From the NCBI GenBank assembly GCA_965219875.1, contig CBDCOW010000003.1:1276479-1340478 (forward strand): 64,000 nucleotides of DNA. Direction: 5' to 3'. This document shows, one piece after another, positions 1 through 52,875 of the stretch. Source of the stretch: Dehalococcoidia bacterium (GTDB lineage Bacteria; Chloroflexota; Dehalococcoidia; SHYB01). The position numbers and the translations under genes were made by a program. Numbering within the stretch: position 1 is the first letter of the stretch; every line of letters begins with the position of its first letter. The notes below the pieces were generated by a model. That model made no database searches and was not told where the DNA came from. It saw only the letters and a program-made list of their open reading frames with translations.

Positions 1-306
1 CTGGCCAGGCTGGTGAACAACTACCGCTCCGACGGCGCCAAGAACGCCTCCGGTCTCGCCGATCCGAAGATCGACGCGGCGATAGACGCTATCATGGCGA
101 CGCCCAGCGTGGCGGAACAGCAGCGCATGGCCAAGGATCTGCAGGACTACCTCCTCCAAAACGTGCTCGTGAGCGCCCGCGTCGCGGACTCCTATGCCTA
201 TACCGCCGCGCAGGCCGACGTGCGCACGGGCGACGCCGGACGTTACCGTACGCAGCCTATCGAGACCTACGTGCGCGACCACGAGGAGATCTGGTTCGAG
301 CGTTAA
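1..306 (+). CDS. ABC transporter substrate-binding protein, C-terminal fragment (5' end outside window)
   Basis: The open frame runs from nt 1 with no start. Its C-terminal composition (…NNYRSDGAKNASGLADPKIDAAID…IWFER) resembles family-5 solute-binding proteins. This is a partial gene. Confidence 0.45.
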   Translation: MARLVNNYRSDGAKNASGLADPKIDAAIDAIMATPSVAEQQRMAKDLQDYLLQNVLVSARVADSYAYTAAQADVRTGDAGRYRTQPIETYVRDHEEIWFER

Positions 307-328
307 CCTTTCCGCAGGAGTCATCACC

Positions 329-1141
329 ATGTCCATCCTTGATACGTTCTCACTCGACGGGCGCGTGGCCGTCGTCTCCGGGCCGGGACAGGGTATCGGC
401 CGGGCTATCGCGCTGGCGATGGCCGAGGCCGGGGCCGACGTCGTCCTCGCCGGGATCAACGTGGAAAACCCGTCGGCCAGCGAGGCCGAGCTCGCGGAGG
501 CGGTGGCACAGATCGAGTCGCGGGGCCGTCGCGCACTCCCCGTCACGGTGGACATGCGCGACGGGGAAGGTGTGCAAGGGCTCGTCGCCAAGGCCGTCGA
601 GGCCTTCGGCAAGATCGACGTGATGGTGAACAACGTCGGCGGCACCGGGCTCGAACCCACGCTCGGGCTCAGCGAAGAGACGTGGAACCTCGGCATCGAG
701 ACGAACCTCACCACGACGTTCATGGGCTGCCGGTACGCCGGGGAGCACATGGCGGAACGCGGGTCGGGCGCCATCGTCAACATTTCGTCGATGGACGGGC
801 GGCGCCCCGCGCTGCATCGCGCCGCCTACGGCGCGGGCAAGGCGGGGGTGATCAGCCTCACCGAGACGGCGGCGGAGGAGCTCGGCCCCTATGGCATCAG
901 GGTCAACGCCATCGCGCCGACTTGGGTGCTCACCGACCGCATGGCGCAGCGCTGGAAGGAGGACCCCAGCAAGGCGGAACTTGCCGTCCCCACGATCCCG
1001 TTGGGCCGCGGCGCCCGGCCCGACGAGGTCGCCGCGCTGGCCGTCTTTCTGGCCTCCGACGCCTCCTCCTACATCACGGGACATACCATCGGCATCACCG
1101 GCGGCGCATTGATCACCGGGACGCCGGAGATGATCGTTTAG
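329..1141 (+). CDS. short-chain dehydrogenase/reductase (SDR)
   Basis: ATG at 329 is preceded by GGAG. A TGxxxGIG Rossmann motif (VVSGPGQGIGRAI) and a YxxxK catalytic region (AAYGAGKAG) are present. The longer upstream ORF start at 194 is unlikely. Confidence 0.85.
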   Translation: MSILDTFSLDGRVAVVSGPGQGIGRAIALAMAEAGADVVLAGINVENPSASEAELAEAVAQIESRGRRALPVTVDMRDGEGVQGLVAKAVEAFGKIDVMVNNVGGTGLEPTLGLSEETWNLGIETNLTTTFMGCRYAGEHMAERGSGAIVNISSMDGRRPALHRAAYGAGKAGVISLTETAAEELGPYGIRVNAIAPTWVLTDRMAQRWKEDPSKAELAVPTIPLGRGARPDEVAALAVFLASDASSYITGHTIGITGGALITGTPEMIV

Positions 1142-1158
1142 CGACTAGGGGGAAGCCG

Positions 1159-1977
1159 ATGGGCGTACTCGACCTTTTCAAACTCGAAGGCAAGACGGCG
1201 ATCATCACCGGCGCGGGCCAAGGCATCGGACGCGGCATCGCGACCGGCTTCGCCGAGGCGGGGGCGAACGTCGTCCTCGCCGGCGTCAACGTCAAGACGC
1301 CGGAACGGAGCGAAGCCGAGCTGCGCGAGCTCGCCGACGAGCTATCGGCGCTCGGCGGGCGGGCGCTGCCCGTGGTGACCGAGATGCGCAACGAGGCCGA
1401 CGTGGCCGGGCTTGTCGAGCGCGCCGCAGGCGAGTTCGGCGGCGTCGACGTCATGGTCAACAACGTGGGCGGGGGCACCATTCCCACGCCGCTCCTGAAG
1501 CTATCGCCGGAGCACTGGCGGGAGAACGTTCGAGAGAATGTGAACACCACGTTCCTGGGATGCCGCATCGCCGGAGCGCACATGGCAGAGCGGGGGTCGG
1601 GAACCATTGTCAACCTGGCCGCAATCGCGGGGATCGGCCCCTCCCCCTACTACGCCCACTACGCCGCGGCCAAGGCCGGCGTGATCAGCATCACCAGGAC
1701 CTTCGCGGCCGAACTCGCGCCCGCGGTGCGCGTCAACGCCATCATTCCCTTTCTGATTCGCACCTCCACCGTCAACGCGGCGATGCAGGCGGACCCGGCA
1801 CTGGAAGCCGAGGCCCTAAGCATGACACCGTTGGGGCGTCTGGGGACGCCGCGGGAGGTGGCGTCGCTGGCGCTCTTCCTCGCGAGCGACGCGTCGTCGT
1901 ACGTCACCGGGCAGGCGGTGCGGCTCACCGGCGGCGCGCAGCCGGGCAGCAACCTGTCGGTGACCGATCCGAAGTAA
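1159..1977 (+). CDS. short-chain dehydrogenase/reductase (SDR), paralog of upstream gene
   Basis: ATG at 1159 is preceded by GGGGGAAG. It carries TGAGQGIGRGIA and YAAAKAG motifs and is tandem with the 329-1141 SDR. Confidence 0.85.
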   Translation: MGVLDLFKLEGKTAIITGAGQGIGRGIATGFAEAGANVVLAGVNVKTPERSEAELRELADELSALGGRALPVVTEMRNEADVAGLVERAAGEFGGVDVMVNNVGGGTIPTPLLKLSPEHWRENVRENVNTTFLGCRIAGAHMAERGSGTIVNLAAIAGIGPSPYYAHYAAAKAGVISITRTFAAELAPAVRVNAIIPFLIRTSTVNAAMQADPALEAEALSMTPLGRLGTPREVASLALFLASDASSYVTGQAVRLTGGAQPGSNLSVTDPK

Positions 1978-2001
1978 TCCACTTAACGAGAGATCGACGG
2001 C

Positions 2002-2805
2002 ATGACCAACGGCATTCGCTACGGCTACGCCGACACCCCGGAGGGGCAGGTCCACTACCGGGAGGCGGGCTCGGGGCCCGCGGTGGTGCTGCTCCACGAG
2101 ACGCCCCTGTCGGGCGCGACCTACGAGTGGGCGTTGCCGCTGCTGGCGCCGCACGTCCGGGCCATCGCCCCCGACATCCCCGGCTACGGCTCGTCGCCGC
2201 CGCCGGACGCGCCGCTTTCGATCCCGGAGTACGCGCGCCGCGTCGGCCTGATCCTCGACGCGCTGGGCATCGAACGAGCCGCCATCGCCGGAGGGCATAC
2301 CGGAGCGGCGGTGGCACTGCAGATCGCCACCGACCTGCCCGGACGGGTGCCCAGCGTGATCGCCATGGGCACGCCTCTGTTCACCAAGGAGCAGGGGGAG
2401 GAGATGATCGAGCGGACCGACCTCGGCTACCACGCATCAAAGGACGGAACGCACCTCGAGGCCGCGTGGACCTACATCGCCCGGTTCCTCGGCGATTCCT
2501 CCGACGAATACTACGACGTCGTTACCCGCGCCTTCATGCAGGCCGGCGATCGCTTCGACTGGGCGTTCAAGGCCATCTTCACCTTCGACCTCTACGCCTT
2601 GCTGCCCAAGGTGCCCTGCCCTACCCTGTACCTGATCACCGAGGGGGACTTCCTCCGGGACAAGAACGAAGAGGCGGTGAAGTTGACGCCCAAAGGCGAG
2701 GGCCGGGTGCTCGACCTTCCCCGCGGCGAGCTCTACGCGCGGCACCCGGAGACCTTCCGGGACGAAGCGCTGGCATACTGGCGAAGGACCGGCTACCTCT
2801 CCTAG
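2002..2805 (+). CDS. alpha/beta-fold hydrolase
   Basis: 267 aa with an HG oxyanion region (VVLLHETPLSG) and a nucleophile-elbow-like GGHTGAA motif, typical of alpha/beta hydrolase-fold enzymes. Confidence 0.7.
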   Translation: MTNGIRYGYADTPEGQVHYREAGSGPAVVLLHETPLSGATYEWALPLLAPHVRAIAPDIPGYGSSPPPDAPLSIPEYARRVGLILDALGIERAAIAGGHTGAAVALQIATDLPGRVPSVIAMGTPLFTKEQGEEMIERTDLGYHASKDGTHLEAAWTYIARFLGDSSDEYYDVVTRAFMQAGDRFDWAFKAIFTFDLYALLPKVPCPTLYLITEGDFLRDKNEEAVKLTPKGEGRVLDLPRGELYARHPETFRDEALAYWRRTGYLS

Positions 2806-2832
2806 CACCACCGCGACGGTACGCAAACGGCT

Positions 2833-4023
2833 ATGTCTCCTGAACACGAAGAACGCGTCATCACCGACGAACTGCTCGAACGGGCGCGGGGTCACGTCGG
2901 GGCGACGCTTAAGACGCATGCGCCCTTTCACGAGCACGTCACCGCCGACGCGGCGCGGCACTTCGCCCACGGCGGCGGCGACGACAACCCCCTCTACTGC
3001 GACCCCGCCTACGCGGCGGGAGCGCGCTGGGGAGCCGTCATCGCGCCGCCGATGTTCTTCAGGAGCACCGGTGTTCCCTTAAAGACGGAGTGGACGGAGG
3101 AGCGCGCCCTGTCGCGCGACCCTTTGAGCGGCATCCATTCCTGGTACGCCGGCGACGTAGTCCGCTGGCTCCAGCCGATGAAGGCCGGCGACCAGATCTT
3201 CGAGCGCCGCTTCCTCAAGGACCTCATCGAGAAGTCGAGCTCCTTCGCGGGCCGCACCATCCTCGAAATCTCGCGCCGGGAATACCGGAACCAGCGCGGC
3301 GAGATCGTGGTGGTGTCCGACCAGATCAACATTCGTGGCGGGCGACAGAAGAAGTGGGGCGAGCGCAAGAAGTACGCCGCCTACGAGCGTCAAAGCTACA
3401 CGCCGGAGGAGATCGAGCGCATCGACGAGGCGTACGCGCGCGAATCGCGCCGCGGCGCTGAGCCGCGGTACTGGGAGGACGTCGAGACCGGCGATGAGCT
3501 GCCGGGGCAGGTGAAGGGCCCGATCACCGTGACCGACATCATGAACTGGAACATGGGCTGGGGGCTCGCCATGCAGTTCCACGGCGCGCACCGGCTCGCC
3601 TATCAGTGGCGGAAGGCGCACCCCAGAGCCTACATGACCAACGAGTACGGCGTCCCCGACAGCATCGAGGCCGTGCACTGGGACGACGAACTCGCCCGCC
3701 GCACGGGCAACCCCCACGCCTACGACTACGGCGGCCAGCGGATCGCGTGGCTGGCGCAGATCATCACCGACTGGATGGGCGACGACGGCTGGCTGCTCTC
3801 GCTCGACTGCCAGGTGCGGCGCTTCGTCTACATCGGCGACACCGTGTGGACGAAGGCCACGGTCACCGGCAAGTCGACAAACGACGGTCAGCGCGAGGTC
3901 GAGATCGAGGTGCGGGCCGAAGACCAGCGCGGCGAAGTCACGGCAACGGGGCGCGCCGTCGCGCTGCTGCCGTCGCGGGGCGGTGGAGACGTCGGGCTGC
4001 CGCCCAAGATCGACCTCGGTTAG
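2833..4023 (+). CDS. MaoC-like double-hotdog (R)-specific enoyl-CoA hydratase/dehydratase
   Basis: 396 aa. The N-terminal hotdog domain (…DDNPLYCDPAYAAG…IAPPMFF) plus a C-terminal MaoC domain form a double-hotdog. It is paralogous to 58555-59787. Confidence 0.75.
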   Translation: MSPEHEERVITDELLERARGHVGATLKTHAPFHEHVTADAARHFAHGGGDDNPLYCDPAYAAGARWGAVIAPPMFFRSTGVPLKTEWTEERALSRDPLSGIHSWYAGDVVRWLQPMKAGDQIFERRFLKDLIEKSSSFAGRTILEISRREYRNQRGEIVVVSDQINIRGGRQKKWGERKKYAAYERQSYTPEEIERIDEAYARESRRGAEPRYWEDVETGDELPGQVKGPITVTDIMNWNMGWGLAMQFHGAHRLAYQWRKAHPRAYMTNEYGVPDSIEAVHWDDELARRTGNPHAYDYGGQRIAWLAQIITDWMGDDGWLLSLDCQVRRFVYIGDTVWTKATVTGKSTNDGQREVEIEVRAEDQRGEVTATGRAVALLPSRGGGDVGLPPKIDLG

Positions 4024-5250
4024 CTAGACGATGACCCCGCGCGCTTCGAGATCGCGCAGCTCCCTCGACCCGATTCCGAGCAGCTCGCCGTAGACGTATT
4101 CGTCGTCCTCGCCGGTCTTGGGGGGGCGGCGGTCGATGCGGCCCGGCGTCCGGCTGAACTTCCACGGCGCGCCCATCAGGAGCAGCGGATTGCCCGCCAC
4201 GTCTTCGGTGATTTCGAAGACGCCCCGCGCCTGCAGGTGCGGGTCGGCGAGGAGGTCGGCCGCCGAATAGGACGCGGTGGCGGGGACGCCCGCCGCCTGC
4301 AAGTCGTTCATCACCTCGATCTTGTCGCGCGGCGCTGTCCACGCCGCTATCTCAGCGTCGAGCTCGTGCTGGTGAGCATGGCGCGCCGGCTCCGTAGCGA
4401 AACGAGGATCCGTGGGCCAGTCCGGGCGGTCGAGGGCGGCGCAGAGGGCGCGCCATTCCTCCTCCGTCCCCACCGCGATCGAGAGCCATTGGTCGTCGCC
4501 CTTACAAGGGTAGACGCCGTGAGGCGCCATGTGGGGGTCGCGGTTGCCCATGCGCGGCTGATCGCGTTTGTTGACCACGGCGTCGAGGACGGCTTCGCCG
4601 ATGAAGCTCGTCATCACCTCGCGGCTGGCGGCGTCGATGTGACAGCCTTGCCCCGACTGACGGGCGTTCCACACCGCGGTAAGTAGCGCAAACGACGACG
4701 CCGTCCCCGATATCAGGTCTACGGGCAGCCGCAGTTCGACGGGAGGGCCATCCTCGTAGCCGGTGAGGTAGCCGGGGCCTCCAAGGGCGGAGAAGGCCTG
4801 CGCCAGCCCCTTGCCATGGCGCTCGGGCCCCGTCGCGCCGTGCGCCGACGCTGACAGCAGCACCAGTGCCGGGCTCAACGCGCGGAGATCGTCGTAGCCG
4901 AATCCGAGCCGCTCGAAGACGCCGGCCTGGAAGTTCTCGGCGACGGCGTCGGAGACCGCGATGATTCGCTTGGCGAGCGCCACGCCATCGGGGTGCTTTA
5001 GGTTCAGACGGACGCCCTTCTTGTTCACGTAGAGCTCGTCCAGCGAGAACCAGCGCGTCCCCTTCTCCGCCCGCTCCGAGTCGCCCGAAGGCCGCACCCC
5101 CCGGAAGATCGTGGGATGCGCCGCCGTCTCGGGCTTGATGACCTCCGCGCCCATGAGCGAGCAGAGGAAGGTGCAGTAGGGGCCGACGCCGGCCCAGGTG
5201 AAGTCGACAATACGGACGCCGCTAAGCGGCTGGGGGTCGAAGCCGCTCAC
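4024..5250 (-). CDS. family III CoA-transferase (CaiB/BaiF family)
   Basis: Begins MSGFDPQPLSGVRIVDFTWAGVGPYCTFLCSLMGAEVIKPE, the classic N-terminus of CaiB/BaiF CoA-transferases. 408 aa. Confidence 0.85.
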   Translation of the reverse strand: MSGFDPQPLSGVRIVDFTWAGVGPYCTFLCSLMGAEVIKPETAAHPTIFRGVRPSGDSERAEKGTRWFSLDELYVNKKGVRLNLKHPDGVALAKRIIAVSDAVAENFQAGVFERLGFGYDDLRALSPALVLLSASAHGATGPERHGKGLAQAFSALGGPGYLTGYEDGPPVELRLPVDLISGTASSFALLTAVWNARQSGQGCHIDAASREVMTSFIGEAVLDAVVNKRDQPRMGNRDPHMAPHGVYPCKGDDQWLSIAVGTEEEWRALCAALDRPDWPTDPRFATEPARHAHQHELDAEIAAWTAPRDKIEVMNDLQAAGVPATASYSAADLLADPHLQARGVFEITEDVAGNPLLLMGAPWKFSRTPGRIDRRPPKTGEDDEYVYGELLGIGSRELRDLEARGVIV

Positions 5251-9495: not shown

Positions 9496-9556
9496 GGCCT
9501 GTTCACGCGGGGAGGGAGCAGCGCCCTTGGGGCGCTCGCGCGCCTTGCGGCGCGCG

Positions 9557-9624
9557 CCCTCTCTCAGTCTCCCCCAGAGGGGGAGAGGCCGGAGGAGGGC
9601 GATTCGCGAATCGCCCCTACGGGC
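9557..9624. repeat. REP-like palindromic repeat cluster (CCCTCTCTCAGTCTCCCCCAGAGGGGGAGAGG + GGGCGATTCGCGAATCGCCCCTACGGG)
   Basis: Perfect inverted repeats. The same units recur at about 26575, 41925, 47705-47815, 48795 and 51000-51140. Confidence 0.7.
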
Positions 9625-10025
9625 GGGGTCACGATGGCCGTCGATTGGTCGCGAGTCGGCCCCTGTGCGACACGCCCCCTTGACGGCCCGCGCCACCGCT
9701 GGTAGAGTAGCAATATCGAACGTATGTTCGGTGTTGCCTAGCCCCGTGTCGGTGGCCATCGGCCGCTAGCCCGCCCTTAGAGGGGGCGGAGACACTGCCT
9801 CTAACAGTGGAGGGGGCGGGCGGAAAAGAGCGGCCGCATCGGCCACCGGGACGGCCTGCTCGGAGCGCGCCCGAGCAGCCCTCCTATCCCGGGGGAGACC
9901 GTGATGCAACCGCTGCTTGAGCCTCCGGAAGGGGCTGTGCAAGGATCCCCGTGGGGAGGAGAGACCGAAGGCGGACGGGCGTCCACAAGGGGTGCCTCTA
10001 CGGGAGCGGAGAGGCTTCCCGCGGG

Positions 10026-26345: not shown

Positions 26346-26510
26346 GGAGACCTTTTCGTAACCGGGGTGACTGACCGCGAGGGTGGCGGGCTTCGATATC
26401 CCGTGGCGGTTGCGAGGGGCCCCTCATCTCAATCTTCTCCCGTGGGGAGAAGAGGCAAGACCTCCCGGCCCCACCCATGCTTGCCCGCAGGCGGGTTGCG
26501 CAAAGGTCTC
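26346..26510. mobile_element. MITE-like element, copy 1 (TIR GGAGACCTTTTCGTAACC / GGTTGCGCAAAGGTCTC)
   Basis: About 165 bp bounded by imperfect terminal inverted repeats. An internal hairpin CTTCTCCCGTGGGGAGAAG is present. Near-identical copies lie at 33672-33837 and 41945-42109, with a partial at 48697-48757. Confidence 0.6.
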
Positions 26511-26696
26511 TGTTGGGAGAGGGTAAGACGCCCCCCTCCGCCCCGCCCCTCCGACGCGCCCTTCCGGCGCGTGCCCTCTTTCAGTTTCCCCCAGAGGGGG
26601 AAAGGCTTAAGGTGGGCCCCCCAGAGGGGACGAGGCCGGAGGGGAGGCGGCGCGCGCCGGGGAAGGAGCGCGCCCTTTGGGGCGCCCGCGCGCCGG

Positions 26697-33582: not shown

Positions 33583-33671
33583 ATTCAGAACGGTTTGAAA
33601 CCTATTTCTATCTTTCAGACTAGCATGGCCCTGCTTATGTCGTCAACCGTCGACAGAACCTCTCCCCCTTT

Positions 33672-33837
33672 GGGGCCTTTGCGTAACCGGGGCTGACTGG
33701 CGCGAGGGTGGCAGGCTTCGATGGCCCATTGGTGGTTGCGAGGGTGCCCCTCATCTCAATCTTCTCCCGTGGGGAGAAGAGGCAAGACCTCCCGGCCCCA
33801 CCCATGCTTGCCCGCGGGCGGTTGTGCAAAGGTCTCC
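33672..33837. mobile_element. MITE-like element, copy 2
   Basis: Same internal sequence and TIRs as 26346-26510. Confidence 0.6.
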
Positions 33838-33915
33838 CTTGGGGGAGAACACCTCAAGTCTCTCCCTCCGGGCCGCACTGAGAGCTCACACGGCAGTGTC
33901 ATTCCCTCCTTGCCC

Positions 33916-41847: not shown

Positions 41848-41944
41848 GGATCGAAGCCTCCGGGGCCGGCGCGACGGCGTTGCGCCAACTCTAGGGGAGC
41901 GGCGCGGCGGGCGTCAAACGGCCCTCTCTCAGTCTCCCCCAGAA

Positions 41945-42109
41945 GAGACCTTTGCGTAACCGGGGTGACTGACCGCGAAGGTGGCGGACTTCGATAACCC
42001 GTGGCGGTTGCGAGGGTGCCCCTCATCTCAATCTTCTCCAGTGGGGAGAAGAGGCAAGACCTCCCGGCCCCACCCATGCTTGCCCGCGGGCGGTTGTGCA
42101 AAGGTCTCC
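41945..42109. mobile_element. MITE-like element, copy 3
   Basis: TIR AGAGACCTTTGCGTAACC … GGTTGTGCAAAGGTCTCC. It is flanked by CTCTCCCCCAGA/GGGGGAGAG palindromes. Confidence 0.6.
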
Positions 42110-42988: not shown

Positions 42989-43064
<76 letters not shown>

Positions 43065-43082: not shown

Positions 43083-44240
43083 GTGCGTCGTAAGCAGCGT
43101 CTGGCATTTGTTGTCACCGCGGCGGGCGTGCTCAGCCTGGTGCTGAGCGCTTGCGCTTCGGGCGGCGGGGTCGAGGGGCTGGAGTCGACGGTGGACGCGC
43201 GCGTCGCCACGGCGCTGGCGTCGCAGCCGACGGCGACGTCGCAGCCTATGCCGCCACCCCAGCCGACGGTCACGCCACAGCCGACATCGACGCCACAGCC
43301 CGCAGCCACGCCGCAACCGACGCCGACGCCACAGCCGACATCGACGCCACAGCCGCTCGCCGTGGTCGGAAGCGACGGTGACGTGGTCGTCTTTCCGACG
43401 CCGTTGCCCACCGCGACGCCGGTGATCGTGCCGCCCCCGCCGCCGCCGGCGACGCCGCAGCCGACCGCCACGCCGCAACCGACGGCGACACCCGCGCCGA
43501 CCGTGACACCGCAGACCATCCCCAGCCCTGGAGCGGCGCCGCCAACGGTGCGCCCGACGGCCACCCCACGGCCCACGCCCACGCCGACAGCAACCGCCGC
43601 GCCGCCAGCCCTTGGCGACATCCTGGAGAGTGTCACGCGGGCGACGGTACTCATCGAGACCCTTGAGAAGGCCGGGTCGGGGTTCTTCATCTCAGACGAC
43701 ATCATCCTGTCCAACGCCCACATCTTCGACCAAGACGACGTGGGTTCCCCGTTCGTGCTCCGGAATAAATTCAACGAGAAGATCGAAACGGTGCTCGTCT
43801 ACCGGGGCGTGCTGGTCGACGTGGCCGTGCTGGAGCGCGTGTCGCTGGGCCAAGTCGCGGGGCCGGAAACGACGACGATTCCGAGAGGCGCGCCGGCGCG
43901 CCTCGGGGACCGGGTTTTCGTCGTCGGCTTTCCAACGAGGTCGCTGCAGGCCGCCGCGCCAACGATCGTCATCACTGCGGGCATCGTGTCGGCCACGCCG
44001 TTCCTGCAAGGGCTCAAGTTCTCCAACGAGGAGCCCAGGCCGATGAGGTGGGTGCAGACCGACACGCCGTTCAACTCCGGCAACAGCGGGGGGCCGTTGG
44101 TCAACGAACAGGGTGAAGTCGTCGGCATCGTGACTTGGAAGTTCGTCGGCGCCACGATCGACGGGCTGAACATGGCGCTGCCCATCGACACCGCGCTCTC
44201 GGTGATCCCCAAGTCAATCTACGACCACGACGCGGAGTAG
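43083..44240 (+). CDS. secreted trypsin-like serine protease lipoprotein (S1 family) with Pro/Thr-rich linker
   Basis: GTG start. A lipobox (LSAC), a QPT/PQP repeat linker, and the catalytic motif GNSGGPLV are present. Confidence 0.75.
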   Translation: MRRKQRLAFVVTAAGVLSLVLSACASGGGVEGLESTVDARVATALASQPTATSQPMPPPQPTVTPQPTSTPQPAATPQPTPTPQPTSTPQPLAVVGSDGDVVVFPTPLPTATPVIVPPPPPPATPQPTATPQPTATPAPTVTPQTIPSPGAAPPTVRPTATPRPTPTPTATAAPPALGDILESVTRATVLIETLEKAGSGFFISDDIILSNAHIFDQDDVGSPFVLRNKFNEKIETVLVYRGVLVDVAVLERVSLGQVAGPETTTIPRGAPARLGDRVFVVGFPTRSLQAAAPTIVITAGIVSATPFLQGLKFSNEEPRPMRWVQTDTPFNSGNSGGPLVNEQGEVVGIVTWKFVGATIDGLNMALPIDTALSVIPKSIYDHDAE

Positions 44241-44257
44241 GCGGGCGGCGGCGGCGC

Positions 44258-45064
44258 CTAGAAGAATCTGCCCCAGCCCGCCTTCTTCGTCGTCTCGTTC
44301 CAGAACTTGGTCCCAAGACGGTCCTTGCTTGCGAAGAAGAGGTAGTACTGCACTACCCCCCTGTTGTCCGTGATGGGGACAGGTGTCGGCTGATTCGCCG
44401 GGTACCCTAACTTCGTCAGCCGGTTCCCGTAATGACTCAGCAGCGCCTGGGTGGGGTCAGGCGCCGACTCGTAGATCGACTCCCATTGGCCGTCGTCCCC
44501 GAACATTTCGGTGATCTTCTGGGTCGGCGCCTTCACTGATCGCCTAATGCCGAGCGTCTGAACGTTGACCAGGAGGTCTACACGTCGGTTGGCTGTTAGT
44601 GCCCCAATCGTCTCAAACTTGATGTTGAATGCGAATGGATCCACAAACATGAGGGTCAGTGCGGTTGCCGGAATAAAGCGCCGAAGTTCTGTGATCACGC
44701 GAGGATCATTGCAATCTCCGGAGCGAATGAGAACCCGGTCTTGTGCGACCAGGCCGGCACTTCTTCCAGTCAGCGCTTGAATATGGTTTGGGTCTTGGTC
44801 TACGAAAGCGTAGTGCGTGAACTGCTGTTCCAGCTTGAGCATGCGGATGGGAGAGCCATCAAACGTCTCTTCTGGGCTTCGCTTCACTCTAGCCATACCG
44901 GGGCCTGCAAAGAGGTCGATGTACCCACGATGATTCCACTTTCGGTGCATGGCGTTGTTGAAGATATTGGCGTAGTACTCGAGCTTCGAAAGCTTGTCTT
45001 GAGCCCAGTATCCGGCCTCAAGGATGGGGGAGCCGTCTGGCCCTGGGCGACAGTTCTTGCACAT
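44258..45064 (-). CDS. putative three-Cys-motif partner protein (TcmP-like), methyltransferase-fold
   Basis: ATG at 45064, 5 nt after the stop of the upstream DUF5131 gene. A DLFAGPG (SAM motif-I-like) and a later FVDPF (motif-IV-like) are present. The gene is lower in GC. The N-terminal 113 codons of track ORF 44258-45403 are antisense overlap and not coding. Confidence 0.5.
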   Translation of the reverse strand: MCKNCRPGPDGSPILEAGYWAQDKLSKLEYYANIFNNAMHRKWNHRGYIDLFAGPGMARVKRSPEETFDGSPIRMLKLEQQFTHYAFVDQDPNHIQALTGRSAGLVAQDRVLIRSGDCNDPRVITELRRFIPATALTLMFVDPFAFNIKFETIGALTANRRVDLLVNVQTLGIRRSVKAPTQKITEMFGDDGQWESIYESAPDPTQALLSHYGNRLTKLGYPANQPTPVPITDNRGVVQYYLFFASKDRLGTKFWNETTKKAGWGRFF

Positions 45065-45069
45065 ACCGC

Positions 45070-45786
45070 CTAAGCCGCCTGCGGCATTGCCCGCCAGAGC
45101 TGGCCGTCGAGGAGGGCTCGGTCTTTGCCCCGCTTGTCGATGGGGCCGCCGAGCTGCTTGAGGAAGTAGGGCACGCCGCTTGCGTCGCACTGGTCGCGGA
45201 TCGAGCGGGCCCAGTCCATCTTCATGGCGCGGGCGCCGGGGCCGCTCTCGCCGCCCGCGATCACCCAGTGCAAGCCGTCGAGGTCGAGCGTCAGCGGGCC
45301 GAGCAGCGGTTCGCAGGAGAGGAAGCGGACGCGGGCGGGGACTTCGCGCAGGTGGTCGATCCGCCAGGCGTAGGACTGATTCTCGACCGAGACCCCCATC
45401 CACACGTTGTCCGGCCAGGGTAGCGACGGGGCGAGCTCAGCGAGACGGTCGGCCCGCTTGGTGAGCACTTGAAAGGTGTGCCAGTGGGCGGCCCGCATGG
45501 TCTCGAACACCGAGCGTATGAAGTCGGCGGGCGCGTCGGGATGGAAGAGGTCGGACATGCTGTTGACGAAGACGCGGCGCGGCCGTCGCCAGCGGAGCGG
45601 CAAATCGACGAGGTCGGTGTGGAGCGTCAAGGCGAAGCCGCGTCCGTAGCGCGGATTCCCCATCGCCTTAAGGCGTTTGGCCATGCGCTCGGCGTAGCAC
45701 CGTTTGCAGCCCGGCGATATCTTGTTGCAACCCGTGACGGGGTTCCAGGTCGCCTCGGTCCACTCGATCGAGGAGGCTCCGGCCAT
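45070..45786 (-). CDS. DUF5131 / phage Gp37-Gp68 family protein (three-Cys motif)
   Basis: ATG at 45786 with a strong AGGAGG RBS. The N-terminus [28 protein letters not shown] carries the characteristic Cys-x6-Cys-x2-Cys. Confidence 0.6.
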
Positions 45787-46039
45787 GTTGCTTCCCTCCT
45801 GGCGCTCCCTAGGATTGAAACTTTTTGATACTGGGGCAAGTAGCGGGTGGCACGGCTCAGTCGGCGCTGCTCGGTTGTCGATTATAGAGCGCCCCCGATC
45901 CGTCGGCACACAACAGCCTTACCCGCCCCGCGCGCAACGTTTAACCTTTCGCTAACATGGCGTTCACCTTTGCGGCTTGCGGGCGTGTACGCTAAGGGCT
46001 GCACGGGCGTGCACGGCGGGCGCGAGGGGAGGCGGACGT

Positions 46040-46156
46040 ATGGGGTATTTTCTTATGGGGCTGTTTACGGTGGTGGTGACGTCGATTGCGTTGGTGGACT
46101 TCGGGGCGCGCGTCCGTCGGGACGACATCAACGAACGCCCAGGCCCCCACCCCTAG
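46040..46156 (+). CDS. candidate small hydrophobic peptide (38 aa)
   Basis: GGAGG sits 7 nt upstream of the ATG. It encodes MGYFLMGLFTVVVTSIALVDFGARVRRDDINERPGPHP. There is no homology evidence. Confidence 0.2.
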   Translation: MGYFLMGLFTVVVTSIALVDFGARVRRDDINERPGPHP

Positions 46157-47403
46157 ACGGGTCGGTCCTCGCCGCGGGGGCCGAGGAGCAGGCCGCTCAC
46201 CGTGACCGCGATTGGCGCCACCGCGCTGACGACCAGTGCGGTGAACCGCGAGCCGCTGAGGTCGGAGACGACGCCAACGACGACGGGCCCGAGGATCGAG
46301 CCGCCCAGGATCAGCGTCATGATGAAGGATGAGCTCGCCGCGAGCGCCTTCGCCCCCGCCCTCGGCATCTCGAACGGCACCGTGAGTGCGATCGGCATGT
46401 AGCCCCATCCCAGGCCGACGGCGGTCGCGAAGAGGGCCAGGAGCCAGATATCCGTGGTGACCAGCATCCCGAACAGGCCCCCCGTCATCACCAGGCCCGC
46501 CACCGTCACCACCACCCGCCAGTTCCGGATCCGTGGCGCGTAGAGGCCGACGGCCAGCGCCGGCGGAATCGTGGTCAGGGAGACGAGGCCGAAGAGCCAC
46601 CCTGTCTGGGTCAACGGAACGTTGTGGTCTTCGAGCATGAAGATTGGCCAGAACGTGCCGAAGGAGGCCCACCCGAACGTGCCTCCGAAGGCGCCGATCC
46701 CGATGACCCACGCGGGGCGGTAGCGAAGGACGACGCCGAGCACGGACCGGCCTGCCGACGCCAGGGGGTGCTCGGTCCCCAGGCCGCGGCTCCGCCCGAA
46801 CACGACCCAGAAGAGGAACACGCCCACGCCGAAGAACGCATAGAGGTGGTACACCATCCGCCAGTCCCCGGTGACGTTGAGCAGGATGGGCGTAAGGAGC
46901 AGGACGAGGAACTCGGCGATGCCGGTGAGCGCCACGATCATGCCGGTGGCCAGCGGCGCCTCCGACAACGGATGCCAGAGCTGCGTCAAGACGGCGCGCG
47001 CCGGCCAGCGGACGGCAAGGGTGAAGCCAAAGCCGACGCGGGCGATGAAGAGGACAGCGAGGGACGGTGAGAGGCCGTGAAGGAAGGTGAAGAAGGCGCC
47101 GAAGGCCAGGGAGAGCGACGTCATGTGCAGGGGGTTGAAGCGGCTCATCATCAGGGCCGCGGGCAGCATCATGAGGGTGGGGCCGATGCGGATCGAAGCG
47201 CCGAGCCAGCCGCCCTGCGTATCGTTGATGCCGAACGTCTTGTCGATCTCGGGAAGCAGCAGGCCGAGCGAGAGCGTGGGCAGCGTCATCGCCCAGTTGG
47301 CAGCGCAGAGGCTGAAGAGGACCACCCAGCGGTAGGGGATGACGGGAAGTCCAGCGGCGGTCGTCGCCGATGGCGGCCCCGCCGGTGGCGGCGTTAGCGA
47401 CAA
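46153..47403 (-). CDS. MFS transporter
   Basis: 416 aa with 12 predicted TM helices. Confidence 0.75.
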   Translation of the reverse strand: MSLTPPPAGPPSATTAAGLPVIPYRWVVLFSLCAANWAMTLPTLSLGLLLPEIDKTFGINDTQGGWLGASIRIGPTLMMLPAALMMSRFNPLHMTSLSLAFGAFFTFLHGLSPSLAVLFIARVGFGFTLAVRWPARAVLTQLWHPLSEAPLATGMIVALTGIAEFLVLLLTPILLNVTGDWRMVYHLYAFFGVGVFLFWVVFGRSRGLGTEHPLASAGRSVLGVVLRYRPAWVIGIGAFGGTFGWASFGTFWPIFMLEDHNVPLTQTGWLFGLVSLTTIPPALAVGLYAPRIRNWRVVVTVAGLVMTGGLFGMLVTTDIWLLALFATAVGLGWGYMPIALTVPFEMPRAGAKALAASSSFIMTLILGGSILGPVVVGVVSDLSGSRFTALVVSAVAPIAVTVSGLLLGPRGEDRPV

Positions 47404-47434
47404 CGGTGGTTCTCCGTCAAGATGCTCCCCGCTT

Positions 47435-47607
47435 CAGTTGAGGGCGTAGAGGCCGGCGGCGTTGCCCGCGAGCATCGCGTGTTTCACGTCGGCGGGCACG
47501 CCCGGGAACTGCTCCTCGATGATCCGCTGCGAGTTGGGCCACGTGGTGTCGCTGTGCGGGTAGTCGGACGACCACATCTGGTTCTCCGTCCCGATGCGGT
47601 AGTCCAT
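47435..47607 (-). pseudogene. C-terminal remnant of an amidohydrolase-2 family gene
   Basis: It encodes MDYRIGTENQMWSSDYPHSDTTWPNSQRIIEEQFPGVPADVKHAMLAGNAAGLYALN, which aligns to the C-terminus of the intact amidohydrolase at 60774-61874 (…NAMWSSDYPHSDTLWP…KHALLKGNAIREYGL). The upstream part is replaced by REP/MITE repeats. Confidence 0.5.
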
Positions 47608-48876
47608 GGCAAACGCCTCCTTGGGAGCGGGTCGTCCCGTCCCCGTGAGTGTACGGAAGGGGTCCGCTTCAGTCTACAGAGGTTCGGCCGGCCTTCCCCG
47701 TCCCGGCCCTCTCTCAGTCTCTCCCAGGGGGAGACCTTTGCGTAACCTGAGCCTAACCGCACGAGGCGCTCAGGGGGGAGGGAGCGGGCGATTCGCGAAT
47801 CGCCCCTACGGGAGGGGATAGGGCGAGCGGAGTTGGCAGCCCTTGCGTCCGTTCGGCGGCGCTCGGAACCCGTGGTCTCCGTTCGTTGCGTCCGCGCCTC
47901 ACCACGCAACGCGCCTTGGGGCGCGCCTCGGCTCAGGCCCGCCCCGGAGGGGACGGACGAGCGGGGCTCGACCGTTGGCGCGGCTGACCGTCCTCGCGCT
48001 TTCGCGCCGCGTCTGCCGTGCAAGACCGCGGAGTCCGGCGACCTTCGCCGGGTTGGTGGCCCTTCGCCTCTCTCCTTAGGAGAAGGCTGCCTTGGCTAGG
48101 CTGTTGGTTCTCGGTGCGGCGTTCTTTGATTTGTACGGCCTTGGGGGGGCCGGGCCACGCGGGGCGGTCGTTGCGCGCGCCGTCTGTTATGACGGAGCGG
48201 ACGGTCCGGTCCACCACGCTGGGTGAAGCGAGGCCGGCGGTTCGCGCACCCCGCGGGCAAGGCGGGGATAGGTCCCCCGGGCCGCGGTAAGGCGGCGCGG
48301 GGTCTTTGCCGTCCGCAGCGGTTACGGAGGCAGGTCGTCGCCGCGTGGCCGGCGAGAGGCAGGACGACCCTCCGGGCTTATGGTCCGTTGGGAGGACGGG
48401 CCGGGATGGACTTGCCGCCACGGTGGCGGTGTCCACGGATAGCGCCGCACCGAGAAGGGGGCGTGTGTGGTCGGTTGGGGCAGGGTCCTCCTTTGGGTGA
48501 TCTGGCGGCCCGCGTTCCGCGCGTCCGCGGCTGGCGGGCCTGGGAAACATATGTTCTCCAATGATGGTAGGGGAGGGGTTTGGGGGTTGTCAAGGGCGGT
48601 GTGGCGGGCGGGGGCGGAGGGGGACGGGCGCCCACAAGGGGCGCCCCTACGGGAGGGGTGCCGGCGGGCGGCACGGGGTGGCGGGCTGCGATGGGCGTTG
48701 GTGGTTGCGAGGGGGCCCCTCATCTCAGTCTTCTCCCGTGGGGAGAAGAGGCAAGAAGGCGCCCTGCGGGCACCCGCGCGCCTAGCGGCGCGCGCCCTCT
48801 CTCAGTCTCCCCCAGAGGGAGAGAGGTTTAGGTGGGCTCCGCCAGCCGGAGGGGAGGGCACCCACAAGGGGCGCCC

Positions 48877-50034
48877 CTACGGTATCTCGGCGCCGGCGAT
48901 GAGGGTGGCGGCGGCGGCGAACATGCCGCCGGGACCGTGGGCGATGCCGAACTTGGCATTGGGAACCTGACGCTCGCCGGCCGCGCCGCGCAGCTGCCGC
49001 ACGAGCTCGATCATGGTGTACATGCCGTACATGCCGGAGTGACTGTAGGAGAGACCGCCGCCGTTGGTGTTCATGGGGAAGTCGCCGCCGGGGGCGGTGC
49101 GCCCGTTCTCGACGAAGGGGCCGCTCTCGCCTTTGCCCACGAAGCCGAGGTCTTCCAGCGCGGCCATCGGGGTGAAGGAGAAGGCGTCGTAGAGCTCGGC
49201 GACGGCGATGTCCTTGTGGGTAACCCCAGACATGTCGAAGGCGGAGCGCCCCGAGATTACCGCCGCGTCCGACGTCGTCGCGTCGCGGATGTTCGAGATG
49301 CCGTAGTGCGCCGTGGCGTGCCCCGTCCCGAGGACGTAAACCGGCGGCTTGGGCAGCGCCGTCGCCTCGTCGGCCCGGGTGAGGACGAGCGCGCCGCCGG
49401 CGTCGGTGACCAGGCAGCACATGAACAGGGTATAGGGCCAGCAGACCATGCGAGAGTTTAGAACGTCGTCGATGGTGATGTCGTCCTTCATCACGGCTTT
49501 GGGGTGCATTTGGGCCCACTTCCGGGTCGAGACCGACACTTCCGCCAGTTGTTCCAGCGTGGTGCCGTACTCGTGCATGTGGCGTGTGGCCGGCAGGGAG
49601 AACGTTGTCGGTGCGCCGAAGGTGCCGTAGGGGGCCTCGAACTGGCCTCCTGGGAGGCCGGGGGCGCCGGCAGGGGGGGCGACGCCGATGCGGGAGCGGC
49701 CGCTTTCGCCGTGGGAGATGACGGCGACGTTGATGAGGCCCGCGTCGAGGGCCAGCATGGCGTGCTCGACCATGGCGATGAAGGAGCAGCCGCCCATCTG
49801 GGTGTTGTTGTAGAGGCGGGGCGTGATCCCCAGGTACTCGCCGAGCTGGGTCATCGGGACGCCGGGGCAGAGCAGGCCGTCCACGTCGCTCAGCTTCAGG
49901 CCCGCGTCGTCGAGCGCGTTGCGAATGCCCTCGGCGTGCAGCGTGATCATAGAATGGCCGGGAAGCGTCCCCAGCCGGTCCGTCTCGCAGGCGCCGACGA
50001 TGGCGACCTTGCCGCGAAGGTCTTTGGTGGGCAT
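48877..50034 (-). CDS. SCP-x-type thiolase-fold protein (thiolase/retro-aldolase, Ltp-like)
   Basis: 385 aa beginning MPTKDLRGKVAIVGACETDRLG. A thiolase fold with a downstream DUF35 partner. Confidence 0.75.
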   Translation of the reverse strand: MPTKDLRGKVAIVGACETDRLGTLPGHSMITLHAEGIRNALDDAGLKLSDVDGLLCPGVPMTQLGEYLGITPRLYNNTQMGGCSFIAMVEHAMLALDAGLINVAVISHGESGRSRIGVAPPAGAPGLPGGQFEAPYGTFGAPTTFSLPATRHMHEYGTTLEQLAEVSVSTRKWAQMHPKAVMKDDITIDDVLNSRMVCWPYTLFMCCLVTDAGGALVLTRADEATALPKPPVYVLGTGHATAHYGISNIRDATTSDAAVISGRSAFDMSGVTHKDIAVAELYDAFSFTPMAALEDLGFVGKGESGPFVENGRTAPGGDFPMNTNGGGLSYSHSGMYGMYTMIELVRQLRGAAGERQVPNAKFGIAHGPGGMFAAAATLIAGAEIP

Positions 50035-50599: not shown

Positions 50600-50830
50600 C
50601 ATCCCGCCTCCCCCCGCCCTCACCCCAACCCTCTCCCAGCGGGAGAGGGGGCAGGACCCCCTCAGCCGCCCCAGCCCTCTCACTCGTCTCTCCCAAGGGA
50701 GACCTTTGCGTAACTCGGCGGGCGGGCTTTAGCAAGGTCGCGCGGCCCCCGCCTCCCCCCGCCCTCACCCCAACCCTCTCCCAGCGGGAGAGGGGGCAGG
50801 ACCCCGCGCCGCCCTCCCTTTCCCAAGGCC
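50600..50830. repeat. ~140-bp tandem repeat array (about 1.5 units) sharing the GAGACCTTTGCGTAAC end and CCCTCTCCCAGCGGGAGAGGG palindrome
   Basis: Direct reading of the sequence. It belongs to the same family as the array at 52205-52875. Confidence 0.7.
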
Positions 50831-51149
50831 AGCGGGCGGCGTTCTTCCCCTCGACGAAGGTTTGCAAAGGTCTTCAAGGGGAGAGAGGCTTGAGGTGCCC
50901 AGAGGGGGAGAGGCTTAGGGCGGTCGGCGTTGACCGGGCGGGGTGCGCCGACTACGGTGTAGCGGCTATGCGCGTCGATGCTGTGTCCCACGCCGCGGGC
51001 TTGGGAACCCTCTCTCAGTCTCCCCCAGAGGGGGAGAGGTCTACGGTGGCTCCCCCAGAGGGGGAGAGGTCTACGGTGGCTCCCCCAAAGGGGGAGAGGT
51101 CTGAGGCGGCCCTCTCTCAGCCTCTCCCAGGGGGAGAGAGGTTTAGGGA

Positions 51150-51834
51150 TGCGCCGGAGGGGGAGAGGAGGCGGGTCGTCGTCATCGACGCGGTGCGGGC
51201 CTCCTCAACCATTGCCCACGCCGTCGCCTCCGGGGCGAAGCGAGTGGTGCCCGTCGCCGCCATTGAGGAGGCGTGGGAGCTGCGCCAGCGGCTCGGACGA
51301 GAGCGGCCCCTGCTTGGCGGCGAGCGCGGCGGCCTCAAGATCGAGGGGTTCGACCTGGGGAACTCGCCGGAGGCCTACACGCCGCGCGCCGTTGGGGGAC
51401 GGACGGTGATCATCACCACTACCAACGGGACCCAGGCCATGCGCGCCGGCGAACGGGTCGGCCGCGTCGTCGTGGGGGCGTTCGTCAACCTCCCCGCCGT
51501 CGTTGCGCGCTTGCTGGATTGGAGCGAAGACGTCCTGCTGGCACCGGTGGGCCGCGAAGACGCCCCGGTGCTCGACGACACCGTCTGCGCCGGCATGTAT
51601 GCCGACGCCCTCCTCGACGCCGGCTTCGACCTCAGCCCCGCCGCCGAGGAGCTGCGCCGCGCCTATCTCCCCTATGCGGGGCGGTTGCTCGACGCCCTCG
51701 CTGAGTCGGCGTCGGGACGCGCCCTCATCGCCGTCGGCCTGGGGAGCGACCTGCGCTACTGCGCCCAGGTCGGCGTCCTCGACTCCGCGCCGCTGATAGA
51801 CGGGGGCGCGATTTGCGAGGGGCGGGCGGCGTGA
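51150..51834 (+). CDS. 2-phosphosulfolactate phosphatase family protein (ComB-like)
   Basis: …VVVIDAVRASSTIAHAVASG…GFDLGNSPE… matches the ComB family. There is no canonical in-frame start because the 5' end abuts the repeat array, so the start coordinate is approximate. Confidence 0.55.
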
Positions 51835-52205
51835 CGGCGCTCCTGCTCGTTGGAGGGGGCGGCTTCCTGGGGTCGATCGCCCGCTACGGCCTCTCCAAAG
51901 CCGTGCACCGCTGGCTGGGCGACGCGGCGTTCCCCTACGGCACGTTCGCGGTGAACATGATCGGCTGCCTCCTGATCGGGCTGCTCCTGGGGATCATCGA
52001 GCAGCGCGGCGGCGGGTCGAACCTCCGCGCCTTCGCCGCCATCGGCGTCCTGGGGGGCTTCACCACCTTTTCCGCCTTCGGCTACGACACGCTCGTCCTC
52101 TTCCGCGACGGGCGCGTCCCGGCGGGGCTGGCCAACGTCGTGCTCCAGCCGGTGCTGGGGCTGCTCGCGGCGTGGGCGGGGTGGAGCGCGGCGAAGCTAG
52201 TCTAG
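51831..52205 (+). CDS. crcB: fluoride ion channel CrcB/FluC
   Basis: GTG overlaps the comB stop. GSIARYGLS…GFTTFSAF motifs. About 124 aa with 4 TM helices. Confidence 0.75.
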   Translation: MTALLLVGGGGFLGSIARYGLSKAVHRWLGDAAFPYGTFAVNMIGCLLIGLLLGIIEQRGGGSNLRAFAAIGVLGGFTTFSAFGYDTLVLFRDGRVPAGLANVVLQPVLGLLAAWAGWSAAKLV

Positions 52206-52875
52206 GGGGGCGAGACCGGTCTCAGGCTCTCCCAAGGGAGAAGCTTTGCGTAACTGGGGTGGCTGAGGCGAGGATGGCGGGCTTCAGCAAGGTCGCGCGG
52301 CCCCCGCCTCCCCCCGCCCTCACCCCAACCCTCTCCCAGCGGGAGAGGGGGCAGGCCCCCCCCAGCCGCCCCAGCCCTCTCACTCGTCTCTCCCAAGGGA
52401 GACCTTTGCGTAACTCGGCGGGCGGGCTTTAACAAGGTCGCGCGGCCCCCGCCTCCCCCCGCCCTCACTCCAACCCTCTCCCGGCGGGAGAGGGGGCAGG
52501 ACCCCCCAGCCGCCCCAGCCCTCTCACTCGTCTCTCCCAAGGAAGACCTTTGCGTAACTGGGCGGGCGGGCTTCAGCAAGGTCGGGCGGCCCCCGCCTCC
52601 CCCCGCCCTCACCCCAACCCTCTCCCAGCGGGAGAGGGGGCAGGACCCCCCAGCCACCCCCGAGCCCTCTCTCAGTCTCTACAAGGGGAGACCTCGGCGT
52701 AACTCGGCGGGCGGGCTTCAGCAAGGTCGCGCGGCCCCCGCCTCCCCCCGCCCTCACCCCAACCCTCTCCCAGCGGGAGAGGGGGCAGGCCCCCCCAGCC
52801 GCCCCAGCCCTCTCACTCGTCTCTCCCAAGGGGAGAGAGGCTTAAGGTGCCCAGAGGGGGAGAGGCTTTAGGTGG
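52205..52875. repeat. ~140-bp tandem repeat array (about 4.5 units)
   Basis: The unit is …CTCTCCCAAGGGAGACCTTTGCGTAACTCGGCGGGCGGGCTTTAACAAGGTCGCGCGGCCCCCGCCTCCCCCCGCCCTCACCCCAACCCTCTCCCAGCGGGAGAGGGGGCAGGACCCCCCAGCCGCCCCAGCCCTCTCACTCGT…, repeated head-to-tail. Confidence 0.8.

Follow-up and report, generated by a model that had tools for sequence, protein, structure and literature searches.

A DUF5131 gene and its methyltransferase-fold partner TcmP beside tRNA-Phe in a Dehalococcoidia genome: a candidate nucleic-acid modification pair with a signature of allele exchange

Two adjacent genes in a 64,000-nucleotide stretch of a Dehalococcoidia bacterium genome (GenBank assembly GCA_965219875.1, contig CBDCOW010000003.1, positions 1,276,479 to 1,340,478; hereafter the window) encode a protein of the DUF5131, or phage Gp37/Gp68, family and a “three-Cys-motif partner,” TcmP. 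The window pair is a further instance of a catalogued, functionally uncharacterised pair; the present contribution consists of structural assignments for the two proteins, the rule that TcmP accompanies a lyase-like radical S-adenosylmethionine (SAM) gene, and the signature of allele exchange at TcmP.

Layout of the locus

The DUF5131 gene (45070..45786, minus strand) encodes 238 amino acids (aa), from an ATG at 45786 to a TAG at 45072-45070. The gene junction (45065..45072, minus strand) consists of this stop codon and a 5-nt spacer, GCGGT, after which the TcmP gene (44258..45064, minus strand; 268 aa) opens with its ATG at 45064. A Shine-Dalgarno-like AGGAGG, read from the sequence at 45795..45800 (minus strand), precedes the DUF5131 start codon with a spacing of 8 nt. 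Longer GTG-start versions of both open reading frames (ORFs) exist, but homologue alignments and the gene calls of the source contig favour the shorter starts. The corresponding genes of the sister locus L002 share an 8-nt overlap, and we infer that DUF5131 and TcmP are co-transcribed and possibly translationally coupled. The 366-bp intergenic region 5' of the pair (45787..46152, minus strand), conserved at 95-98% in the related loci L001 and L002, is the presumed location of the promoter; a search around the pair for a consensus sigma-70 promoter and a terminator gave nothing usable.

On the other side of TcmP lie a trypsin-family protease gene (43083..44240, plus strand) and a tRNA-Phe gene with anticodon GAA (42989..43064, plus strand), the latter being the only Rfam match found around the pair, while an MFS transporter gene (46153..47403) is the neighbour 5' of DUF5131. 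Protease, TcmP, DUF5131 and the upstream spacer together make up a variable block (43083..46152) between the 3' end of tRNA-Phe and the MFS gene. A preliminary description of the window, made from the letters alone, had named the AGGAGG ribosome-binding site, the TAG five nucleotides ahead of the TcmP start and all three neighbours, and each was located as described.

The DUF5131 protein

The DUF5131 protein matches PF07505 with 327.1 bits (cut-off 28.9) over profile positions 2-243 of 243 and also matches phrog_2045. Its assignment to the Gp37/Gp68 family, proposed initially from an N-terminal Cys-x6-Cys-x2-Cys signature, is thereby confirmed; the signature corresponds to Cys20-x6-Cys27-x2-Cys30 (Cx6Cx2C), the three cysteines are invariant among 54 sequences, and the GGESG at residues 178-182 is likewise invariant. 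The predicted structure is a partial TIM-barrel radical-SAM fold, with spore photoproduct lyase (SPL) as the closest match. Judged from this model, DUF5131 is a lyase-like, iron-sulfur enzyme of the radical-SAM superfamily, and both a [4Fe-4S] cluster and SAM cleavage are predicted. A published listing of radical SAM superfamily subgroups includes DUF5131, in a megacluster that also contains SPL (PMC9477430).

The canonical Cx3Cx2C is absent from DUF5131, there is no match to PF04055 at E<=1, and TIGR04471 gives 73.5 bits, well under its cut-off of 355. Single-sequence searches of the Protein Data Bank (PDB) with DUF5131 and with TcmP returned no match for either protein, and a DUF5131 profile searched against the same database gave chance Dps matches only. 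With at least 8000 homologues found in the search, DUF5131 is among the larger radical-SAM subgroups of uncharacterised reaction.

The TcmP protein

TcmP scores 134.3 bits on TIGR04474 (cut-off 53) over profile positions 2-262 of 263, which confirms its identification as the three-Cys-motif partner. The predicted structure is a class I SAM-methyltransferase fold (Rossmann-like), closest to RlmJ and Trm1. An alignment-built TcmP profile searched against the PDB also placed RlmJ first by sequence (E 0.008), the alignment pairing YvDLFAGPG with YLDTHAGAG, GSPLIA with GSPLIA and LafvDP with LILIDPPY; a Pfam search of TcmP returned no family, and so no methyltransferase family, at E<=1.

The motifs fall at DLFAGPG 50-56 (motif I), GS 70-71, GDCN 116-119 and DPF 142-144 (motif IV). 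In the model DLFAGPG comes after strand 1, GDCN after strand 3 and DPF after strand 4, and strand 2 terminates in an acidic residue; these strand ends are the usual places of methyltransferase motifs I to IV. DLFAGPG and D142-P143 are invariant or nearly so in 42 TcmP homologues, and G54, G56, G70 and S71 are invariant in the family; the DLFAGPG and VDPF segments noticed at the outset as resembling motifs I and IV contain these conserved residues. Taken together, the fold, the motif positions and the invariant residues indicate that an exocyclic-amine nucleic-acid methyltransferase fold and its cofactor-binding motifs are present, and SAM binding and methyl transfer by TcmP are predicted from the model. 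The most variable part of the protein is a helical insert at about residues 170-226, with a mean identity of 66% against 81-83% in the core. The TcmP alleles of the window lineage open with a conserved CxxC (MCKNC, MCRKC or MCEKC; residues 2-5, window 45053-45061), which is absent from the wider TcmP family.

Partners of TcmP across genomes

We collected 80 TcmP loci from a scan of one genome per species and searched their six-frame ORFs with hidden Markov models (HMMs) built from our own alignments. Most of the loci are from Chloroflexota; Acidobacteriota, Planctomycetota, Omnitrophota, Patescibacteria and one archaeon are also represented. DUF5131 is adjacent to TcmP in 59/80: it comes first, as in the window, in 24 loci, follows TcmP in 32 and is on the opposite strand in three. 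A canonical Cx3Cx2C radical SAM protein of the SPL family PF20903 adjoins TcmP in 11 loci and a PA0069/Rv2578c-like radical SAM protein in three, while one locus has a TcmP-SPL-like fusion encoded by a single 606-aa ORF (L022, 7971-9791). The remaining six loci are cut by a contig end, making a partner call impossible. Every resolvable TcmP (74/74) therefore has an adjacent or fused lyase-like radical-SAM gene, and an exhaustive search yielded a second TcmP-SPL-like fusion (P0164, 634 aa). These counts confirm the pairing of three-Cys-motif proteins with TcmP that had been proposed for the window, and show that the linkage of TcmP is obligatory and is to a lyase-like radical-SAM clade, not to one family.

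No other neighbour family recurs around the pair among the 80 loci. The protease was considered as a third component and rejected, as it was not met again at any other locus. A Mantel test shows a correlation between the distance matrices of TcmP and DUF5131 (r 0.67, p 0.001); TcmP is the faster-diverging of the two, its mean identity being 37%, versus 59% for DUF5131. The TcmP family comprises 10,749 clusters at 50% identity (E<=1e-3).

Phages, prophages and gene neighbourhoods

Several copies of the pair are found on or beside mobile elements. In a Tepidibacillus decaturensis prophage, TcmP-DUF5131 sits between a BRCT protein and a group consisting of ImmA, an S24 peptidase and an integrase. 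In Thermicanus aegyptius (L092) a TcmP-like protein of 369 aa, carrying a winged-helix domain at its C-terminus, is encoded ahead of DUF5131, and the pair adjoins TnpB and a serine recombinase. Gordonia phage PantheRoc (L098) encodes DUF5131 (gp40) convergent with a TcmP homologue (gp41; 3247-4233, minus strand) between the integrase and the immunity repressor; gp41, annotated as hypothetical, matches the TcmP HMM with E 2e-39. Three IMG/VR contigs also carry TcmP, in each case adjoining DUF5131. A tblastn search of 50,697 phage records with TcmP gave no match, a result that reflects the sensitivity limit of that search, since the TcmP HMM detects both PantheRoc gp41 and the three IMG/VR contigs.

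DUF5131 without TcmP is present in 181 phage records, mostly of Mycobacterium, Gordonia and Burkholderia phages, and these solo genes belong as a rule to modules for replication or recombination; genes for a RuvC-like resolvase and a polymerase are among the neighbours of phage copies, and locus L091 provides a solo chromosomal copy. In Gordonia phage Bakery (L085, 1421-3975), the annotated DNA methyltransferase gp63 ends at the base where DUF5131 gp64 begins. Bakery gp63 reads as C5-cytosine type by its DLFCGAGG and ENV motifs, so that a different methyltransferase class is here coupled to the same radical-SAM family. Both phiE125 gp38 and Bakery gp63 were tested as hidden TcmP homologues and rejected.

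The solo copies bear on the main rival to a cooperative modification role, namely that the pair serves DNA repair or lesion reversal, possibly as a writer-eraser or toxin-antitoxin arrangement: DUF5131 would use radical chemistry to undo damage to a base, and TcmP would be an accessory lesion-recognition subunit or the maker of the adduct that DUF5131 takes away. SPL is the closest structure to DUF5131, phage DUF5131 copies adjoin RuvC-like resolvase and polymerase genes, and DUF5131 often occurs without TcmP whereas TcmP was in no case seen without a radical-SAM partner, an asymmetry that would follow from TcmP depending on a DUF5131 that could itself do without TcmP. A further point in favour of repair is the reported induction of M. 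tuberculosis Rv2734, together with recA and recX, in response to mitomycin C (PMC5057432), but the link of Rv2734 to DUF5131 rests solely on a GenBank note of similarity for phiE125 gp37. The TcmP-radical-SAM fusions are more readily explained by cooperation than by antagonism, TcmP retains all four methyltransferase motifs, and there is no sign of TcmP toxicity; on balance we regard a repair function as unlikely.

The phage copies also argue against viperin-like nucleotide chemistry, by which DUF5131 would make an antiviral nucleotide analogue and TcmP would methylate or sense it, given that DUF5131 is found in the replication modules of phages themselves. The sampled loci show no recurrent nucleotide kinase or similar gene near the pair, and the TcmP fold is closest to base methyltransferases of nucleic acids that have a substrate-recognition insert, leaving this explanation with very little probability.

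Restriction-modification genes make up approximately 3-6 of the 127 immediate neighbours of the sampled loci, and the remainder are heterogeneous. This count is not set against a background rate, and a defence-island location is not claimed.

Exchange of TcmP alleles between strains

The pair had been described initially as a compositionally distinct patch. This holds for the TcmP ORF (GC 0.561; GC at third codon positions, GC3, 0.695) but not for DUF5131 (GC 0.683, GC3 0.895), which is like the neighbouring genes (GC3 0.855-0.947). All three TcmP alleles considered here (window, L002 and L004) have a GC3 of 0.60-0.70, and the GC of TcmP is below that of its flanks and below that of its partner in 53/53 other loci.

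Three strain-level syntenic relatives, L001, L002 and L004, were compared with the window. The flanks of L001 show ~98% DNA identity and the pair 99.9-100%. For L002 and L004 the flanks are at 95-98% DNA identity and DUF5131 at 91-93%, whereas TcmP is at ~77% (70-76% protein identity); in sliding windows the identity falls at the DUF5131 stop codon and returns at the TcmP stop codon. Synonymous divergence (dS) is 0.87-1.1 for TcmP, 0.21-0.33 for DUF5131 and the protease, and 0.07-0.17 for housekeeping genes. The ratio of non-synonymous to synonymous divergence (dN/dS) of TcmP is low, at 0.13-0.16, indicating purifying selection on a gene that is neither decaying nor racing, and this rules out relaxed or positive selection as the source of the divergence. 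Amelioration of an AT-rich gene was estimated to raise dS about 2-fold, compared with the 3- to 14-fold rise observed, and is a partial explanation only. These sequence comparisons point to functional, anciently diverged TcmP alleles having been swapped at this position, and the same local dip in identity is seen in an independent Dehalococcoidia pair (L010/L023).

A swap of TcmP alleles among strains that are otherwise almost the same is hard to square with an invariant RNA target, and such a target is what a further alternative calls for, namely hypermodification by the pair of a base in tRNA or rRNA, which might, for instance, alter translation during infection or give resistance to a drug or toxin. 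RlmJ and Trm1, the nearest structures to TcmP, are in keeping with this idea, but the distribution of the pair is patchy and mobile, with carriage by phages and prophages, SPL, which comes closest among radical-SAM proteins, is a DNA enzyme, and a winged-helix fusion variant of TcmP exists. RNA modification therefore appears distinctly improbable.

History of the tRNA-Phe flank

On the syntenic outgroup contig L088 (Ga0310344_10028470, 1-4389) the order is MFS, 133 bp, tRNA-Phe, GT2, ECH and tmk, and the block of protease, TcmP and DUF5131 is absent. In L002 (12060-20834) and L003 (3160-6820) an island encoding an AlpA-like regulator, the type I restriction protein HsdR, an SLFN/AlbA_2 protein and an AAA_21 ATPase is inserted in the tRNA-Phe 3' end; it leaves a 17-nt tRNA remnant beside the protease, and the pair is outside the island. 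The absence of the block from L088 and the island in L002 and L003 identify the tRNA-Phe flank as a variable region. The suggestion in the preliminary description that tRNA-Phe is an integration hotspot is borne out to this extent; in the window, no integrase and no att-like or tRNA-derived direct repeats were found around the pair. The pair appears, from these alignments, to be an old, fixed resident of the tRNA-Phe flank in this lineage, with TcmP frequently replaced.

Other features of the region deserve mention. L088 has a GC content of 56% against 68% for the window, although the proteins are 63-83% identical, a large compositional shift. The protease has a lipoprotein-like N-terminus by sequence reading and a Pro/Thr/Gln-rich linker encoded by repeats with an 18-nt period (43203-43523), which is its least conserved part between strains. 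Interspersed repeats of ~30-140 nt occupy intergenic regions at 9521-9628, 26346-26624, 33661-33848, 41919-42059, 47700-48880 and 50603-52836, and the window is ~930 bp longer than L001 at roughly 47748-48676, largely owing to these repeats. A 57-aa ORF (47434-47607, minus strand), which gives an Amidohydro_2 fragment match only, lies between the MFS gene and the repeat-rich spacer and is probably what is left of a gene.

Proposed function of the pair

Our tentative reading, to which we give somewhat less than an even chance, is that DUF5131 and TcmP form a cooperative nucleic-acid modification module, most likely for DNA, within the mobile-element and defence gene pool. The substrate of this joint action, for which the two proteins would probably form a complex, would be a base in nucleic acid and most likely in DNA. 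Choice of target and probably the transfer of a methyl group would fall to TcmP, and the DUF5131 radical enzyme would carry out C-H chemistry on that base or on one next to it; the mark so made would serve a mobile-element, defence or counter-defence economy, not housekeeping. A nucleic-acid modification or defence cassette had been suggested from the letters alone, and the folds, the obligatory linkage and the mobility lend it support; we infer from these the complex, the DNA substrate, the chemistry and the biological role.

That the pair acts on nucleic acid is suggested by the nearest relatives of both SAM-using folds, which act on nucleic-acid bases. DNA as the target is hinted at by the basic nature of both proteins (pI 9.3 and 9.5), the winged-helix variant of TcmP, the presence of DUF5131 in phage replication modules and the DNA methyltransferase of Bakery. 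The prophage and PantheRoc lysogeny modules, the candidacy in PADLOC and the AT-rich TcmP gene are consistent with a role in mobility or conflict, and the exchange of TcmP between strains whose flanks are 95-98% identical, replicated in L010/L023, with specificity-like behaviour.

A number of observations weigh on the other side. The best structural matches of TcmP are RNA, not DNA, methyltransferases; the identity of DUF5131 across phyla, at 62-77%, is unusual for arms-race genes; and the majority of the immediate neighbours are everyday genes of metabolism. The pair comes without a nuclease or reader gene, neither protein has a nuclease domain and no nuclease is recurrent next to the pair among the sampled loci, so that a full restriction-like system is not evident. 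The motifs of PantheRoc gp41 are degenerate (motif I SGQP, motif IV DQQ), and methyl transfer is possibly not universal in the TcmP family; gp41 may, to go by these motifs, be catalytically inactive. The sampled loci were picked by one peptide pattern and may be biased accordingly, and no functional study of DUF5131 or TcmP was found in the literature.

A bolder version of the modification reading, which we consider rather unlikely, is that pairs of TcmP with a lyase-like radical-SAM protein constitute a widespread, previously unrecognised DNA-marking class. The hypervariable TcmP would then give sequence specificity and the radical enzyme would write a non-canonical base modification or make a lesion in a controlled way. 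As in restriction-modification, the specificity gene would be swapped among strains, and the solo DUF5131 of phages would write or erase the same mark.

The present work narrows the problem to an RlmJ/Trm1-type partner, a lyase-like radical enzyme, an obligatory linkage with occasional fusion, and an exchangeable, specificity-like gene. Given the structural, linkage and allele results, the question is directly testable with three natural alleles. Radical-SAM-based DNA modification, if true, would be a new epigenetic or defence chemistry; otherwise, the locus is one more copy of a catalogued pair.

Comparison with known systems

TcmP has the same fold as RlmJ, which makes m6A in 23S rRNA, and Trm1, which makes m2,2G in tRNA; motif I, GSP and the motif IV DP align residue for residue, and TcmP, like RlmJ, has a helical insert after its core. 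Both RlmJ and Trm1 do housekeeping work on their own, whereas TcmP, with ~10% identity to them, is mobile, partner-dependent and hypervariable. SplB differs from DUF5131 in several respects: the identity is 10%, the cysteine motif is Cx3Cx2C in SPL and Cx6Cx2C in DUF5131, the SPL N-terminal region is missing from DUF5131, which has no match to PF20903, and SPL acts alone, unlike the paired DUF5131.

Restriction-modification specificity and methylase genes offer a parallel of another kind, as TcmP is likewise a sharply bounded, deeply diverged cassette in a near-identical locus and under purifying selection. Restriction-modification systems differ in that no restriction endonuclease is found with TcmP; sequence-specific DNA methylation by TcmP is hypothetical.

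The nearest catalogued counterparts are two PDC entries, which are “guilt-by-embedding” predictions placed in PADLOC for future testing (bioRxiv 10.1101/2024.01.29.577857; PMC10855318); phage protection by PDC-M41 or PDC-M30 is not reported in the literature testing other PDC candidates. For PDC-M30 the DUF5131 component matches with 334 bits, whereas its A component is a distant TcmP relative (E 3e-4), and the M30A profiles of 368 and 381 positions suggest partners longer than the TcmP of the window. We assign the 369-aa Thermicanus partner, by its size and architecture, to a putative M30A type, and the TcmP of the window is without the C-terminal winged-helix domain of that protein. PDC-M41, composed of a TcmP-like A and a DUF5131 B component, is the closer match (M41A 78 bits, E 2.4e-22; M41B 352 bits, E 2.9e-106). 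The window pair lies in an ordinary chromosomal neighbourhood, not inside a known defence system; in PDC-M41, too, both components are adjacent and on the same strand, an arrangement equivalent to the “three-Cys-motif partner” pairing of TIGR04474, and nothing structural sets the window pair apart from it.

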